Made by a program: the position numbers and the translations under genes
DNA from: a virus
Taxonomy: Duplodnaviria > Heunggongvirae > Uroviricota > Caudoviricetes
Direction: 5' to 3' (one strand)
IMG/VR virus record: IMGVR_UViG_2671181094_000007
Span: 1 to 22,205 of that record
DNA length: 22,205 bases
In this document: piece after piece, positions 7,395 to 15,040 of the stretch
Position numbering within the stretch: position 1 is the first letter of the stretch
Layout: each line of letters begins with the position of its first letter
Notes under the pieces: generated by a model
Databases searched by the model: none
Told to the model about the DNA's origin: nothing
Seen by the model: the letters and a program-made list of their open reading frames with translations, nothing else

Positions 7395-7535
7395 TTAAAG
7401 TTGAACCCCGCCGTCATGTTCATACGCCTCGGGCTGGCTACTTAACCCCTGACCACTGCCTGGTAACTCGAAGTATTGCCCGGCGTTCTGTGGGGCGGGG
7501 TGGGTTGGTAGGTATATAATGTACTTTGCGTTCAT
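7395..7535 (-). CDS. ydaG: Small protein YdaG-like, about 46 aa
   Basis: MNAKYIIYLPTHPAPQNAGQYFELPGSGQGLSSQPEAYEHDGGVQL; first gene of the leftward operon. Start ambiguous between two adjacent ATGs and an upstream ATG lying inside the ATGTACT palindrome. Confidence 0.45.
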   Translation of the reverse strand: MNAKYIIYLPTHPAPQNAGQYFELPGSGQGLSSQPEAYEHDGGVQL

Positions 7536-7634
7536 CATTGTAAAGTACTTTAAGTACATTTTATGTATAAAAAAATGAGACGGGATAAAGTGAAGCACAA
7601 ACCCGGAGGGGGACGCTACCGGATTTATGCTGGT

Positions 7635-8054
7635 TTAAGAGGCTTTTTGTTTTTTCTTTCGTGCTAACTCTTCGTAAATTGCATTGTACTTCTGTTTTTT
7701 CTCCTCAAGAGTTTTTAAAAGTTCATCTGTCTCACTGTCAGGGAGCTCGTCCAGAAGGTCAATGATGATTTTTTGTCTTGGATTTAACTCCTGATAGAAA
7801 CGTATCTGTCCACTTTCTTCTGTATCCTCTCCCAAAAGATAGGTTGGTGTTGTTCCAATGAGTGTTGCTAATTCCCTTAATTTCTCTCGGCGAGGAATTG
7901 TTTCACCATTAAACCATTTGCTAACCGCTTTTGGTGTTAATTTCATTCGACGGGCAATTTCTGCCTGTCTTCCATGTTGTTCATAACCAGCGTTTTCACA
8001 GGCTAGCGCAAGCCTACTGGCGAACTCTTTACGCGCTTTATCTTCATGAACCAT
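7635..8054 (-). CDS. racR: Prophage repressor, XRE-family helix-turn-helix (RacR-like), 139 aa
   Basis: HTH segment QAEIARRMKLTPKAVSKWFNGETIP; divergent from the cro-like ydaS. No recognisable SD before the ATG, so the mRNA may be leaderless or short-leadered, as lambda cI is from pRM. Confidence 0.75.
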   Translation of the reverse strand: MVHEDKARKEFASRLALACENAGYEQHGRQAEIARRMKLTPKAVSKWFNGETIPRREKLRELATLIGTTPTYLLGEDTEESGQIRFYQELNPRQKIIIDLLDELPDSETDELLKTLEEKKQKYNAIYEELARKKKQKAS

Positions 8055-8078
8055 AAGTTCAATGATATTCGCTCTTGA

Positions 8079-8109
8079 ATGTACTGTCAGTTCTGTTATA
8101 GCATGTACT
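8079..8109. promoter_or_regulatory. Candidate operator pair in the racR-ydaS divergent intergenic region (two ATGTACT motifs 24 bp apart)
   Basis: ATGTACT at 8079-8085 and 8103-8109 inside the 79-bp divergent promoter region; the same motif recurs on the other side of racR at 7519-7525 and 7553-7559. Confidence 0.4.
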
Positions 8110-8133
8110 CAAAGTTCACATTGTGAGGATGAT

Positions 8134-8388
8134 ATGAACCAGAAAACACTTGAAGATGTAATCAAAACTGTTCGCGTTTCTGTTGTGGCCGACGTTTGTG
8201 GTGTCAGCCAAAGAGCAATCTACAAATGGATGGATAACGGAAAATTGCCTCGCACAGAATATACCGGCGAAACAAATTACGCTGAAAAAATCGCTCATGC
8301 ATCAAACGGATTATTTTCTGCCGATGCAATTTTAACTATTGGCAGAAATAAAACTACTACGAAAAAGCTGATGGGAGTTGATTCATGA
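8134..8388 (+). CDS. ydaS: Cro/CI-type HTH regulator (YdaS-like), 84 aa
   Basis: MNQKTLEDVIKTVRVSVVADVCGVSQRAIYKWMDNGKLPRTEY...; GAGGA SD before the ATG at 8134; divergent from racR; stop overlaps the ydaT start (ATGA). Confidence 0.75.
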   Translation: MNQKTLEDVIKTVRVSVVADVCGVSQRAIYKWMDNGKLPRTEYTGETNYAEKIAHASNGLFSADAILTIGRNKTTTKKLMGVDS

Positions 8389-8807
8389 AAATCAAGCATG
8401 AGCACATCGAATCAGTGTTGTTAGCCCTGGCAGCCGAAAAAGGGCAGGCGTGGGTCGCTAACGCAATTACTGAAGAATATCTGCGCCAGGGGGGCGGCGA
8501 ATTGCCCCTGGTACCAGGCAAGGACTGGAACAATCAGCAGAATATCTATCATCGTTGGTTGAAAGGTGAAACGAATGCGCAAAGGGAAAAAATTCAGAAA
8601 CTGATCCCTGCGGTTCTGGCAATTCTTCCTCGCGAGCTGCGTCACCGACTCTGCATCTTCGATACCCTGGAACGCCGTGCATTACTGGCGGCACAGGATG
8701 CACTGAGTACGGCAATTGATGCGCATGATGATGCAGTCCAGGCCGTTTACCGTAAAGCACATTTCAGCGGCGGCGGTTCTCCTAGCGATTCTGTCGTAGT
8801 GCATTGA
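8385..8807 (+). CDS. ydaT: YdaT-like protein, 140 aa (toxic/CII-position protein of Rac)
   Basis: 140-aa ORF MKIKHEHIESVLLALAAEKGQAWVANAITEEYLRQGGGELP..., translationally coupled to ydaS. Confidence 0.8.
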   Translation: MKIKHEHIESVLLALAAEKGQAWVANAITEEYLRQGGGELPLVPGKDWNNQQNIYHRWLKGETNAQREKIQKLIPAVLAILPRELRHRLCIFDTLERRALLAAQDALSTAIDAHDDAVQAVYRKAHFSGGGSPSDSVVVH

Positions 8808-8884
8808 TTGAAATTAATCGTACCGAACTGTTTTGTTCGGTATCAGTTAAATGTAACGCTGCGAGCGTTACAAGGTGAAAACAA

Positions 8885-9673
8885 ATGGCTTCAAACTGGA
8901 TAAAGCTCGAAGTTATTACGCCGGATAAGCCGGAAATATTCAGGCTTGCTGAGATTCTGAATATTGATCCAGATGCCGCATTAGGGAAAGTCATTCGCTT
9001 CTGGGCATGGGCGGATCAACAAATGATAGACGGTAACGCAGAGTGTAACGCTCGAGGCGTTACAAAAAGTGCAATAGACCGTATCACTTTTATGGCTGGT
9101 TTTGCTGATGCGTTAATTCAGGTTGGATGGCTGGTCGAAAGTGATGGAGTGCTTTCACTACCAAACTTTGAGCGTCATAACGGAAAAAGCTCGAAAAAAC
9201 GGGCGGTTACAAACGAGAGAGTTACAAAAATACGCGAACTGAAGCGAAAAGGTAACGCTGCCAGCGTTACACAAACGGATCAAAAAGCGTTACCAGAGGA
9301 AGAGGAAGAGGAAGATATAAATACTGATCTCCCCCTAAATCCCCCTCGGCAAAAACGAGCGTCTAAACAATTCGAGCCGGAGGCCATTGCTCTGCCCGAC
9401 TGGTTGCCAGAAACACTCTGGAATGAGTGGGTCCAGTTCAGGCAGGCATTGCGAAAACCGATTCGAACGGAGCAGGGCGCTAACGGGGCGATACGGGAAC
9501 TGGAAAAATTCCGCCAGCAGGGTTTTACCCCTGAGCAGGTGATTCGACACAGCATCGCCAATGAATACCAGGGCTTGTTCGCGCCGAAAAGTGTTCGGCC
9601 TGAGACGTTGCTCCGACAGGTTAACACTGTCTCGTTTCCGGACAGTGCGATCCCGCCAGGCTTCAGGGGGTAA
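8885..9673 (+). CDS. ydaU: Replication protein, lambda O-position (YdaU-like), 262 aa
   Basis: MASNWIKLEVITPDKPEIFRLAEILNIDPDAALGKVIRFWAWADQQM... with an acidic EEEEEED linker between two domains; immediately upstream of the DnaC-like gene. Confidence 0.8.
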   Translation: MASNWIKLEVITPDKPEIFRLAEILNIDPDAALGKVIRFWAWADQQMIDGNAECNARGVTKSAIDRITFMAGFADALIQVGWLVESDGVLSLPNFERHNGKSSKKRAVTNERVTKIRELKRKGNAASVTQTDQKALPEEEEEEDINTDLPLNPPRQKRASKQFEPEAIALPDWLPETLWNEWVQFRQALRKPIRTEQGANGAIRELEKFRQQGFTPEQVIRHSIANEYQGLFAPKSVRPETLLRQVNTVSFPDSAIPPGFRG

Positions 9674-9679
9674 CTGACC

Positions 9680-10426
9680 ATGAAAAATATTGCGACAGGC
9701 GGCGTTCTGGAACGTATCCGCAGACTGGCCCCGCCACATGTAACCGCGCCATTCAGGACGGTGGCGGAGTGGCGCGAGTGGCAACTTGCAGAAGGCCAGA
9801 AACGTTGCGAGGAGATCAATCGCCAGAATCGTCAGTTGCGGGTGGAAAAAATTCTGAATCGCTCCGGCATCCAGCCGTTGCACCGCAAATGCTCGTTTTC
9901 GAATTACCAGGTGCAGAACGACGGCCAGCGATACGCGTTGAGCCAGGCGAAATCCATCGCCGATGAACTGATGGTCGGGTGTACAAATTTTGCGTTTAGC
10001 GGAAAACCTGGTACCGGAAAAAACCATCTGGCGGCGGCTATCGGGAATCGCCTGCTGAAAAACGGTCAGACAGTGATTGTGGTTACCGTGGCTGATGTTA
10101 TGAGTGCTCTACACGCCAGCTATGACGACGGGCAATCAGGCGAAAAATTTTTGCGGGAACTGTGCGAAGTGGATCTGCTGGTTCTTGATGAAATTGGCAT
10201 TCAGCGCGAGACAAAAAACGAGCAGGTGGTACTGCACCAGATTGTTGATCGCCGGACAGCGTCGATCCGCAGCGTGGGGATGCTGACAAACCTGAACTAT
10301 GAGGCCATGAAAACATTGCTCGGCGAGAGGATTATGGATCGGATGACCATGAACGGCGGGCGATGGGTGAATTTTAACTGGGAGAGCTGGCGCCCGAATG
10401 TTGGTCAGCCAGGAATTGAGAAGTAA
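9680..10426 (+). CDS. ydaV: DnaC-like replicative helicase loader ATPase (YdaV-like), 248 aa
   Basis: Walker A GKPGTGKNHLAAAIG and Walker B DLLVLDEIG motifs; follows the O-like gene by 6 nt. Confidence 0.85.
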   Translation: MKNIATGGVLERIRRLAPPHVTAPFRTVAEWREWQLAEGQKRCEEINRQNRQLRVEKILNRSGIQPLHRKCSFSNYQVQNDGQRYALSQAKSIADELMVGCTNFAFSGKPGTGKNHLAAAIGNRLLKNGQTVIVVTVADVMSALHASYDDGQSGEKFLRELCEVDLLVLDEIGIQRETKNEQVVLHQIVDRRTASIRSVGMLTNLNYEAMKTLLGERIMDRMTMNGGRWVNFNWESWRPNVGQPGIEK

Positions 10427-10448
10427 TTTTTACCGGGAGGAAATTTTA

Positions 10449-11174
10449 ATGGAGACCGTTTTTGACGCACTGAAAGCAATGGGAAAAGCCTCTTCCCAGG
10501 AAGTGGCAGCACGTCTGGGAATGACCCGGGATGAGGCGATTAACGAGCTGTGGAAACTGAAGCGTCGTGGGGAAGCTGATAACAAGGGCCCGATGTGGTG
10601 GTTGACTCAAACCGACGAAAACGCATCTGTAGCACAGGCTTCTAAAGTGACAGCGCAAATGCTGATCGAGGCGATTGAACAGCATGGCCCTAAAGCGGCT
10701 GATGAACTTGCACTGATATTCAGAATTACTTCCCGCAGGGTGAACTCATCGCTGGCTATGGCCATCAGCAAAGGTCGTCTGATTCGCGTAAATCAGAACG
10801 GTAAATTTCGTTACTGCCTGCCGGACGGTAATTTACCAGCAGAGCCGAAAGTTGTATCGGTAGTGAAAACACCTGGTAAAGGCTTTCCTCAGCCAGCCGG
10901 TGTTGCGTTACCAGTACAGGAAGCGGCAACACAGGAAGAAATTAAAACAGATACTGTGGGGGACATTGTGCAGTCACTACCATCGTTCACTGAAACGCGA
11001 GCCAATGACCTGATTATACCATCGCTGCAAATGGCAAACCGCGAACTGCGCCGGGCGAAAAGTTATGTCCAGAAGTGGGAGCGAGTCTGCGCCGCGCTGC
11101 GTGAGCTGAACAAGCACCAGGATATTGTCCGTCAGATTGTCGATTCCTCCAGTCGTATTGTGTCGGAAAAGTGA
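10449..11174 (+). CDS. Hypothetical protein (YdaW-position), 241 aa
   Basis: ORF from METVFDALKAMGKASSQEVAARLGMTRDEAINELWKLKRRGEA... with GGGAGG SD 9 nt upstream; N-terminus resembles a winged-helix/MarR-like fold (inference). The track ORF starts 17 codons earlier inside ydaV. Confidence 0.6.
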   Translation: METVFDALKAMGKASSQEVAARLGMTRDEAINELWKLKRRGEADNKGPMWWLTQTDENASVAQASKVTAQMLIEAIEQHGPKAADELALIFRITSRRVNSSLAMAISKGRLIRVNQNGKFRYCLPDGNLPAEPKVVSVVKTPGKGFPQPAGVALPVQEAATQEEIKTDTVGDIVQSLPSFTETRANDLIIPSLQMANRELRRAKSYVQKWERVCAALRELNKHQDIVRQIVDSSSRIVSEK

Positions 11175-13990: not shown

Positions 13991-15040
13991 GTGCGGGTAT
14001 TACTTAGACCTGTTCTGGTGCCTGAGCTTGGGCTGGTGGTCCTTAAGCCGGGCCGTGAATCCATACAGATATTTCATAATCCTCGAGTGCTGGTGGAGCC
14101 GGAACCGAAAAGCATGCGTAATCTGCCGTCCGGGGTTGTTCCTGCCGTTCGCCAGCCGCTAGTGGAAGACAAAACATTGCTGCCGTTTTTCAGTAACGCA
14201 CGGGTGATTCGTGCTGCTGGTGGTGCTGGTGCATTGTCTGACTGGCTGTTGCGCCATATTAAATCCTGCCAGTGGCCACACGGCGATTATCATCACAGCG
14301 AAACCGTCATTCACCGTTATGGTACCGGCGCAATGGTGTTGTGCTGGCACTGCGACAACCAGCTGCGTGACCAGACATCCGAATCACTCGGGCAACTTGC
14401 TCATCAAAACCTGTCAGCATGGATGATTGACGTCATCGGTCACGCAATAAGCGGTACGCAGGAGCGTGAATTATCTTTGGCTGAATTATCCTGGTGGGCG
14501 GTCCGCAATCAGGTGGCGGACGCGCTACCGGAAGCGGTATTACGTCGTTCGCTGGGGTTGCGTGCAGAAAAAATCCGCTCAATGTACCGTGAAAGCGACA
14601 TCGTACCGGGAGAGCAGACCGCCACCAGCATACTGAAACAGCGCACAAAAAATCTTGCGCCGCTGCCTCACGCCCACCAGCAACAGAACCCACCACAGGA
14701 AAAGACGGTGGTCAGCATTGCCGTTGATCCTGAGTCTCCGGAATCTTTCATGAAACGACCTAAACGTCGCCGCTGGGTTAACGAGAAATACACACGCTGG
14801 GTGAAGACACAGCCGTGTGCGTGTTGTAGTAAGCCAGCCGACGATCCCCATCACCTGATTGGTCATGGTCAGGGCGGAATGGGAACAAAATCCCACGATA
14901 TTTTCACGCTACCGCTGTGTCGGGAGCATCACAACGAGCTTCATGCGGATCCGCTGGCGTTCGAAGAAAAGCATGGTTCTCAGGTTGATTTAATTTTTCG
15001 TTTTCTTGATCACGCCTTTGCAACCGGCGTGCTTGGGTAA
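13991..15040 (+). CDS. ydfU: DUF968-family protein (YdfU-like), 349 aa, GTG start
   Basis: GTG start 4 nt after GGAGG; 349 aa, matching recalled YdfU length; C-terminal Cys/His cluster CACCSKPADDPHHLIGHGQGGMGTKSHDIFTLPLCREHHNELH resembling an HNH/zinc-binding motif. Confidence 0.75.
   Translation: MRVLLRPVLVPELGLVVLKPGRESIQIFHNPRVLVEPEPKSMRNLPSGVVPAVRQPLVEDKTLLPFFSNARVIRAAGGAGALSDWLLRHIKSCQWPHGDYHHSETVIHRYGTGAMVLCWHCDNQLRDQTSESLGQLAHQNLSAWMIDVIGHAISGTQERELSLAELSWWAVRNQVADALPEAVLRRSLGLRAEKIRSMYRESDIVPGEQTATSILKQRTKNLAPLPHAHQQQNPPQEKTVVSIAVDPESPESFMKRPKRRRWVNEKYTRWVKTQPCACCSKPADDPHHLIGHGQGGMGTKSHDIFTLPLCREHHNELHADPLAFEEKHGSQVDLIFRFLDHAFATGVLG

Follow-up and report, generated by a model that had tools for sequence, protein, structure and literature searches.

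In bacteriophage lambda, the sites recognized by the replication initiator are 19-bp dyad-symmetric units, which are bound by initiator dimers. The initiator G38P of SPP1, whose N-terminal domain is a winged helix, binds repeats within its own gene (oriL lies inside gene 38), and in the iteron plasmids (RepA/pi/TrfA) a winged-helix initiator is combined with repeats beside an unwinding element and with inverted repeats for autorepression. The lambda iterons and an AT-rich tract are found in the middle of gene O, and this origin needs transcriptional activation (PMC7466680). In the case of the Rac prophage, an active origin named oriJ has been reported (PMC3945230). The present work deals with a 22,205-nt stretch of viral DNA (IMG/VR record IMGVR_UViG_2671181094_000007, positions 1 to 22,205; hereafter, the window), in which the gene of a replication initiator of 262 amino acids (aa) and the region just upstream of it carry three copies of the palindrome GTAACGC-N5-GCGTTAC. 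These sites are under selection as nucleic acid, not as protein. From their sequence context and by analogy with described systems, they are probably the binding sites of the N-terminal domain (N-domain) of the initiator and would form an origin embedded in its gene, following a lambda-like logic.

Dyad sites around the start of the initiator gene

The three palindromes reported in the initial annotation of this DNA are exact copies. Site U (8853-8871, GTAACGC-TGCGA-GCGTTAC) is non-coding; it lies in the interval that separates ydaT from the initiator gene, its end being 13 nt short of the ATG (8885) and just ahead of the Shine-Dalgarno sequence AAGGTG. Sites A (9045-9063, GTAACGC-TCGAG-GCGTTAC) and B (9252-9270, GTAACGC-TGCCA-GCGTTAC) begin at +160 and +367 of the 262-codon open reading frame, in an identical reading frame, and occupy codons 54-60 (C-N-A-R-G-V-T) and 123-129 (G-N-A-A-S-V-T), respectively, the latter at the end of the N-domain. 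The three full sites are thus 192 bp (U to A) and 207 bp (A to B) apart, a spacing that is unlike the lambda tandem array, as had been pointed out before. Their clustering was also rightly considered to be above chance, since four matches with up to two mismatches were found against 0.03 expected, and none of 100 shuffles reached four. Of the four, the one at 14439 deviates at two positions and is probably fortuitous.

Exact half-sites are concentrated in the same region, with 8 of the 16 present in the 22-kb window lying inside 8850-9295 (binomial P = 3e-10). An extra left half-site, GTAACGC, is found on the plus strand 12 bp upstream of site A, in direct-repeat register; its existence had been noticed, but its position is 9033-9039 and not 9034-9040. 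The earlier list of half-sites was incomplete, in that it missed an exact right half-site at 9287-9293 (minus strand; GCGTTAC, followed by C), which is read as K-A-L-P, abuts a polypurine tract and is among the best conserved elements of the locus. With the polypurine core, which had not been recognized either, it makes up the most telling portion of the arrangement. The copies of GTTACAAA at 9206 and 9221, in turn, are present but are not conserved as site elements: relatives encode A-L-T or R-V-A there, and these copies were dropped as parts of the system.

Immediately after the lone half-site comes the polypurine simple repeat AGAGGAAGAGGAAGAGGAAGA (9295-9315, plus strand), which encodes an acidic linker (EEEEEE), followed by the AT-rich stretch TATAAATACTGATC (9316-9329), which ends with GATC and coincides with a local AT peak in relatives. 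Both together are a candidate unwinding region. The window core (9252-9329) can be written as GTAACGC-N5-GCGTTAC-N16-GCGTTAC-C-(AGAGGA)3AGA-TATAAATACTGATC. Two GATC (Dam) sites, at 9278-9281 and 9326-9329, flank the lone half-site and the polypurine tract; the former is kept, as part of ...CGGATCAAAAAGCGTTACC, in loci of the Rac, Mixta, and Erwinia types.

Conservation as DNA and co-variation with the N-domain

The initial annotation had considered that the palindromes might not be conserved, or that amino-acid coding might explain them entirely. Neither is the case: the sites are conserved across hundreds of phages, and they occur in two reading frames, with fixed synonymous positions and with a non-coding copy. 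The relatives collected by protein similarity from contigs representing one genome per species belong to Mixta, Erwinia, Samsonia, Pantoea, and Pectobacterium, and also include a Pseudomonadota metagenome-assembled genome (MAG), the planctomycete Stieleria, and a Planctomycetota MAG. In relatives with 49-72% identity, the arms of both intragenic palindromes are perfect or one base off and their offsets are unchanged; site A is perfect and begins at +148 or +160 in every N-domain relative of the subfamily. In Rac-, Mixta-, Erwinia-, and Pantoea-type relatives, a perfect site U is found at -32 to -44 from the ATG and is kept although protein identity is only 64-72%; Klebsiella-type and non-enterobacterial relatives lack it. 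The 5-nt spacer of the palindromes varies freely among relatives.

In the main reading frame, the palindrome is read as xGT AAC GCn nnn nGC GTT ACn and encodes x-N-A-x-x-V-T, whereas the alternative frame, GTA ACG Cnn nnn GCG TTA Cnn, yields V-T-x-x-A-L-x. Site B, found at +343 to +391 in the relatives, occupies frame 1 in 52 distinct genes and frame 0 in 21, and site A is in frame 0 in one gene. Among the relatives found by protein similarity, the in-site Asn is always AAC and the in-site Val always GTT (69/69 each), compared with 59 and 44%, respectively, elsewhere in the same genes. The Leu codon of the lone half-site is the rare TTA in 37/37, compared with 14% of Leu codons elsewhere. Simple P-values for such counts are inflated by the kinship of the sequences, and the frame switch and the non-coding copy are independent of them. 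The occurrence of the sites in two reading frames, the fixed synonymous codons and the non-coding copy U therefore establish that the sites are conserved as DNA. The idea that they merely reflect a repeated peptide motif, N-A-x-x-V-T, could draw on the shared frame and similar peptides of the two intragenic sites of the window. It is, however, refuted by the frame switch, which gives an unrelated peptide (in 21 distinct genes at site B and one at site A), and by the fixed AAC, GTT, and TTA codons. The non-coding copy and the location of the encoded residues in low-confidence loop or linker segments also speak against it, so that it can be practically discarded.

The relation between these sites and the protein is further illustrated by the extra half-sites, which are added in 12-bp units and appear in the protein as 4-residue insertions. 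In the alignment, the half-site at 9033-9039 corresponds to a four-codon (12-bp) insertion, GNAE, with respect to other subfamilies; examples are GNAE-CNARGVT in the window and SNAK-GNAI-SNAASVT in the locus L078. In the AlphaFold model of the initiator (mean predicted local distance difference test, pLDDT, of 72.6), pLDDT is below 50 at residues 54-56 (site A) and 123-129 (site B), and the DNA sites thus seem to be written into structurally permissive segments. Such an arrangement, with half-sites that vary in 12-bp units and are placed in loops, fits the expectation for a protein sequence dictated by the DNA at these points.

The sites also follow the N-domain and not the rest of the protein. 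When viral contigs were scanned by DNA pattern alone (two palindromes 175-205 bp apart, protein information being unused), at least 120 loci were recovered, and in 120/120 among the matches listed the sites lie inside a homologue of aa 1-137. These homologues have 39-100% identity, and their C-terminal domains differ. Loci that have only the C-terminal domain in common with the window contain no GTAACGC palindromes. Two further samples of viral contigs were taken by protein similarity and dereplicated to distinct N-domains, GTAACGC-type sites being scored at up to one mismatch. Among the N-domains closest to that of the window, 47/47 have at least two GTAACGC-type sites and 0/47 have two sites of the GTCCGC type; among those closest to epsilon15, 61/61 have two GTCCGC-N7-GCGGAC sites and 0/61 the GTAACGC type. 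The flanking DNA (around 130-160 kb per sample) contains 0-2 sites.

The more distant members of this N-domain family that lack GTAACGC sites include epsilon15, SPN1S, Klebsiella BUCT711, Ralstonia RPZH6, Pseudomonas phiPSA1, and Cobetia Carin1. The palindrome of these phages is (T)GTCCGC-N7-GCGGAC(A), located at +65 and around +341 to +365, with the exception of Carin1, which has a single copy at +343. Other variants are GTAGACG-N6-CGTCTAC at +153 and +368 in the Ralstonia phage Raharianne and TGTCACA-N7-TGTGACA at +357 in one Vibrio phage. The position of the first site depends on the subfamily (+65 vs +148 or +160), and the last site is invariably found where the N-domain ends. A change of palindrome is accompanied by a change of the lone terminal half-site, which is GCGGAC-C in the epsilon15 subfamily and CGACTAC-C in Raharianne. 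Across the sequences compared, the sites are inseparable from the N-domain and their sequence switches with it.

This co-variation bears on the possibility that the binder is not the initiator but a host factor or a neighbouring phage regulator (YdaT/CII-like or Cro-like). Palindromes of such size would fit many dimeric regulators, but the N-domain is the only gene common to all site-bearing loci. The genes around it are not constant (epsilon15 and the Vibrio phage have a methylase, Rac has YdaT, and DnaB or DnaC is found downstream), the hosts range from Enterobacteriaceae to Planctomycetota, and the site sequence switches with the N-domain subfamily, all of which makes another binder improbable. 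Still less probable is that the palindromes act as RNA or single-stranded DNA hairpins that fold in the mRNA and control translation, stability, or termination. It is true that 8810-8900 folds into two stable hairpins (-28.2 kcal/mol, z = -4.3), that the minus strand of site B matches a terminator-like pattern, and that the arms differ between subfamilies while staying self-complementary. Inside a subfamily, however, the arms are invariant rather than covarying, and the variants L011, L012, CP2, and YL1 break the pairing without compensation. In addition, single and direct-repeat half-sites (at 11-12 bp pitch) cannot pair, the lone terminal half-site is as constrained as the dyads, and there is no match to an Rfam family.

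The sequences around the last palindrome follow a common plan, which consists of one or more left half-sites, a spacer, a right half-site, about 5 nt (16 in the window), a right half-site followed by C, a polypurine repeat, a TATAAAAGATAAA-like stretch (consensus) and a C-rich run. The epsilon15 type, for example, reads GTCCGC-N5-GTCCGC-N7-GCGGAC-N5-GCGGAC-C-(AGAGA)4AGA. In the relatives, the terminal half-site is GCGTTACCA in 34/37 and CCGTTACCA in 3/37. When genes of two subfamilies are aligned on the last site, a purine peak (0.84-0.95) and then an AT maximum (0.68-0.72) are seen 30-70 bp after its start. The AT maximum, at +40 to +60 from where site B begins, exceeds in each subfamily any other AT value in the 400 bp to the left and right. 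The counterpart of the window tract in other subfamilies is a near-invariant 23-mer, AGAGAAGAGAAGAGAAGAGAAGA, that is, (AGAGA)4AGA, which is identical in phages of Xanthomonas, Ralstonia, Pseudomonas, and Salmonella and in Stieleria. The loci in which it occurs have 50-65% GC, and the tract forces three Arg codons to be AGA. The origin thus appears to combine a recognition part that is specific to each subfamily with a polypurine and AT-rich part that is common to them and lies directly against the last half-site.

Two side observations concern this region. Among near-identical genes, the length of the enterobacterial (GAGGAA)n tract (15-35 nt) changes only in multiples of 6 nt, which looks like replication slippage altering the length of the poly-Glu linker. 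A C-rich motif, CCCCCTAAATCCCCCTC (P-L-N-P-P), is located at 9330-9346, after the AT-rich stretch, and recurs in relatives as CCCC(C)TAACCCCCC or AAACCCCAC, as well as in K-12-type ydaU (L005 2531-2550); it may be part of the origin or a conserved peptide at the start of the C-terminal domain.

The location of the shared part raises another explanation, namely that the DNA at the domain boundary persists as the exchange point at which N- and C-terminal modules recombine. Different C-terminal domains are indeed joined to the same N-domain precisely at site B, the lone half-site, and the polypurine tract, and the tract is identical across subfamilies. Recombination junctions nevertheless leave unexplained the dyad symmetry, the site located 200-300 bp upstream, the non-coding site U, and the subfamily-specific switching of every half-site; it is more probable that a conserved origin core has module exchange as a side effect, and we regard the junctions as a very unlikely primary cause.

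Further observations were made in the distribution of the sites. In many Rac-type copies, a frameshifted or truncated initiator gene (with a stop after about aa 105-123) coexists with three intact palindromes, as in the viral contigs L033, L047, L086, L092, and L193-L199 and likewise in Shigella and E. coli (P0009-P0016). These copies represent either gene decay with persisting sites or artefacts of sequencing or assembly at the A-rich run around codon 104. Two related viral contigs (L046 1368 and L090 1561) have an extra perfect GTAACGC-N5-GCGTTAC around 4.5 kb from the initiator gene, which may serve as an auxiliary site at a distance or have arisen by chance. A gene for a C-5 cytosine methyltransferase adjoins the initiator gene and overlaps its start in epsilon15 and the Vibrio phage, and in Klebsiella BUCT711 such a gene is located around 1.3 kb downstream of it (L137 1342-2511, L142 1504-2508 and 3889-4761, L140 4544-5059). 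In the plasmid collection, the N-domain was found in two records only, and replicon typing was uninformative. These records, L310 (pE16EC1016-8, CP088505.1) and NC_015459.1 (Pusillimonas), are non-mobilizable circles of 40-52 kb, of which the E. coli record L310 carries phage-type genes. The two plasmids may be episomal phages replicating with the N-domain module.

A probable origin inside the initiator gene

The initiator gene (8885-9673, plus strand) matches phrog_2509 "replication initiation protein" (E = 3e-89), and its product is named "phage replication initiator YdaU family protein" in RefSeq. In this protein, a disordered linker (aa 123-160) connects a winged-helix-like N-domain (around aa 1-122) to a C-terminal domain that is O-like or DnaT-like. 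The initial name, ydaU, holds for the C-terminal domain (aa 139-262, 78-83% identity) and not for the N-domain, which is unlike that of K-12 YdaU; the match to phrog_678 "replication initiation O-like" is confined to the C-terminal part. In the model, the N-domain has helices at 16-25, 29-49, 61-68, and 73-80 and a beta-hairpin at 84-91, and it ends in a long basic helix (101-122), after which come the linker (123-160) and a helical C-terminal domain. The helix-turn-helix and beta-hairpin are modelled, and the fold matches are all winged-helix DNA binders, although weak and generic. No family was found for the N-domain in Pfam (where E-values up to 10 give only noise) or NCBIfam, and a profile search of PDB sequences with it gave no match. 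Only 1 of 12 diverse N-domains matches PF09681 (phage replisome organiser N-term), and weakly (E = 0.016). Immediately downstream, ydaV (9680-10426, plus strand) codes for a DnaC-like helicase loader (PF01695 IstB-like, E = 1.4e-19; NF009043, E = 4.6e-152; DnaC, E = 6e-91; phrog_50), which is presumed to be the partner of the C-terminal domain of the initiator.

The initial annotation had suggested that the palindromes could be origin iterons or autoregulatory sites, and this idea gains support from their conservation beyond coding need and their co-variation with the N-domain of the initiator. They are most likely the initiator's own binding sites, because they are preserved as DNA and change together with the DNA-binding domain. 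On sequence grounds the layout is origin-like, the last site being at the boundary between N-domain and linker in every subfamily and followed by the polypurine tract and the AT maximum. The modelled protein fits an initiator role as well, as indicated by the PHROG label, the winged-helix-like model, and the gene for a DnaC-like loader or DnaB directly downstream. The choice between origin function and autoregulation is, however, one that we infer from the anatomy of the locus.

The mechanism that we propose is as follows. Dimers of the N-domain would bind each 19-bp dyad, and the extra half-sites at 12-bp pitch would extend the complex. The core would be made up of site B (9252-9270), the lone half-site (9287-9293), the polypurine repeat (9295-9315), and the AT-rich stretch (9316-9329), and it is in the last two of these that the DNA would open. 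Sites A and U, which are located 207 bp and a further 192 bp upstream of B, respectively, would stabilize this complex from a distance, probably by looping or wrapping, and site U may also damp the expression of the initiator gene. The C-terminal domain would recruit YdaV together with host DnaB. Finally, transcription through the origin may aid its opening, since the origin is located in a transcribed gene and the RNA strand corresponds to the purine strand.

Several points weigh against this interpretation. No binding or replication experiment on this initiator family was found in the literature searched. The full sites are around 190-300 bp apart, with no lambda-like tandem array, and their spacings (192, 207, 209, 219, 279, and 300 bp) are out of helical phase; helical phasing of the sites was considered and is unsupported by these values. 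The polypurine and AT-rich stretch also codes for the charged linker, so that its conservation could be partly at the protein level, and the window version, (GAGGAA)n, is only moderately AT-rich. Site U, beside the ribosome-binding site, could be purely regulatory.

This last point leads to a broader alternative, in which the initiator or another phage regulator only represses ydaU-ydaV, by roadblock or by looping between U, A, and B, and the origin is elsewhere. Site U is 13 nt upstream of the ATG, beside the Shine-Dalgarno sequence, and spacings of 190-220 bp resemble those of looping operators; lacO2 and galOI also lie inside genes. However, it is the intragenic sites that are universal and U that is optional, and no sigma-70-like promoter was found near U in a scan of 7500-10500. 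A repressor site would have no need for the half-site, the near-invariant polypurine tract, and the AT peak that are joined to the last site, and known initiators with this gene layout have their origin within the gene (PMC7466680). Autoregulation alone is therefore unlikely, although it is compatible with origin function and the two are not mutually exclusive.

A wider proposal can be made on top of the embedded origin, and is put forward as a speculative one. It would be a widespread class of origins composed of an interchangeable specificity module (dyad half-sites in loop and linker codons of the N-domain, with which they switch) and a universal opening module (the lone half-site fused to the near-invariant (AGAGA)n). 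Such origins would open independently of a classical AT-rich element: the polypurine tract would give rise to a triplex or to an R-loop coupled to transcription (purine RNA on pyrimidine DNA), and the helicase would be loaded there. Their users would be Rac-like prophages, epsilon15-like podoviruses, and phages that infect Xanthomonas, Ralstonia, Pseudomonas, and even Planctomycetota.

Prophage setting and comparison with known systems

By its gene content, the window is a Rac-type prophage at the ttcA site. The gene order is intR, xisR, ralR, recT, recE, racC, kilR, sieB, a racR-like repressor gene, and a cro-like gene, followed by ydaT (cII-like), the initiator gene, ydaV, lysis genes, and trkG. 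The DNA of the window is 100% identical to many E. coli chromosomes, with full-length matches in 678/5426 complete E. coli genomes. A scan of 7500-10500 for promoters and terminators gave nothing better than shuffles. No DnaA box was found near the palindromes, which is neutral rather than negative for an origin. The phage records for Rac (MN652886) and vB_EcoS-613R10 have no annotated origin. Between the stop codon of ydaT and site U there is a hairpin with an 8-bp stem (8821-8842, TACCGAAC-TGTTTT-GTTCGGTA), which is kept in a subset of Rac-type loci (at -64) and gives a stable RNA fold together with site U; a possible role for it is that of a weak terminator or attenuator separating the cII-like gene from the initiator gene.

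In a limited search of the literature, neither these sites nor an origin for this initiator family were found to have been described. An origin embedded in the initiator gene is known; the dispersed dyads, the nested half-sites, and the conserved polypurine tract are new. The feature is not conceptually surprising, but it is precise, widespread, and testable. For a large initiator family that lacks a Pfam domain, and for which no origin is described in the literature searched, it provides a precise predicted one; this family spans the common Rac-type prophages of E. coli and Shigella, Klebsiella prophages, and the epsilon15/SPN1S group. It is also a clean natural case of a DNA element overriding protein coding, with two frames and with 12-bp duplications that appear as 4-residue insertions. 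Another aspect of significance is that initiator and site specificity switch jointly: the subfamily-specific sites predict replication incompatibility or cross-activation among co-resident prophages, and the conserved core predicts a recombination point between N- and C-terminal modules. The polypurine tract, in addition, raises the question of how such origins are opened.

The analogy with lambda drawn in the initial annotation holds in four respects: the 19-bp dyads, their position at a domain boundary in the initiator gene, the adjacent AT-rich tract, and the downstream loader gene. As in lambda and the Stx phages, the predicted origin lies in the initiator gene between a DNA-binding N-domain and a loader-recruiting C-terminal domain (PMC7466680). 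Site B and the lone half-site correspond to codons 123-137, at the start of the modelled disordered segment, and all subfamilies are alike in this. The dyads have 7-bp arms and a 5-bp spacer here, and 6-bp arms and a 7-bp spacer in epsilon15, adding up to 19 bp as in lambda, and the AT-rich tract is likewise on the downstream side of the sites (9295-9329 with the polypurine repeat in the window). The order of cro-like, cII-like, initiator, and loader genes downstream of an early promoter is also shared, as is the transcription of the origin region (PMC7466680). On the other hand, lambda has four packed tandem iterons (six in Stx phages), whereas here there are two or three dyads 190-300 bp apart, together with half-sites. 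The N-domain is not Phage_rep_O (there is no Pfam match), the loader is DnaC-like and not lambda P, and a near-invariant polypurine simple repeat abuts the last half-site.

The K-12 Rac prophage is identical to the window in prophage type, integration site (ttcA-intR ... trkG), and gene order, and in both cases ydaV is adjacent to a gene whose C-terminal domain is 78-83% identical. The K-12-type YdaU (L005) has, however, a DUF1376 N-domain (PF07120 at 2.7e-26), whereas the protein of the window has no Pfam hit, and its gene has no GTAACGC palindromes but its own TGTTCAAAC-type repeats at the equivalent place. The mapping of oriJ, which was studied in K-12, is therefore not transferable to the sites of the window, because the K-12-type YdaU has a different N-domain and different repeats. 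In L005 (E. coli ECGI0523), TGTTCAAAC-like direct and inverted repeats, partly at 33-bp pitch, were observed at 2370-2480, at the end of the N-domain; this cluster may be the iteron set of the classical oriJ.

Another parallel is found in SPP1. The N-terminus of the initiator, M-A-x-x-W-I-K-L/M-..., resembles the Phage_rep_org_N/DnaD-like family of G38P, although the two systems differ in the type of repeat and in host range, which here comprises Gram-negative bacteria and Planctomycetota. Finally, the iteron plasmids differ in that their repeats are direct, in tandem, monomer-bound, and outside the rep gene, whereas dyads inside the gene are found here, with no DnaA boxes near the sites.

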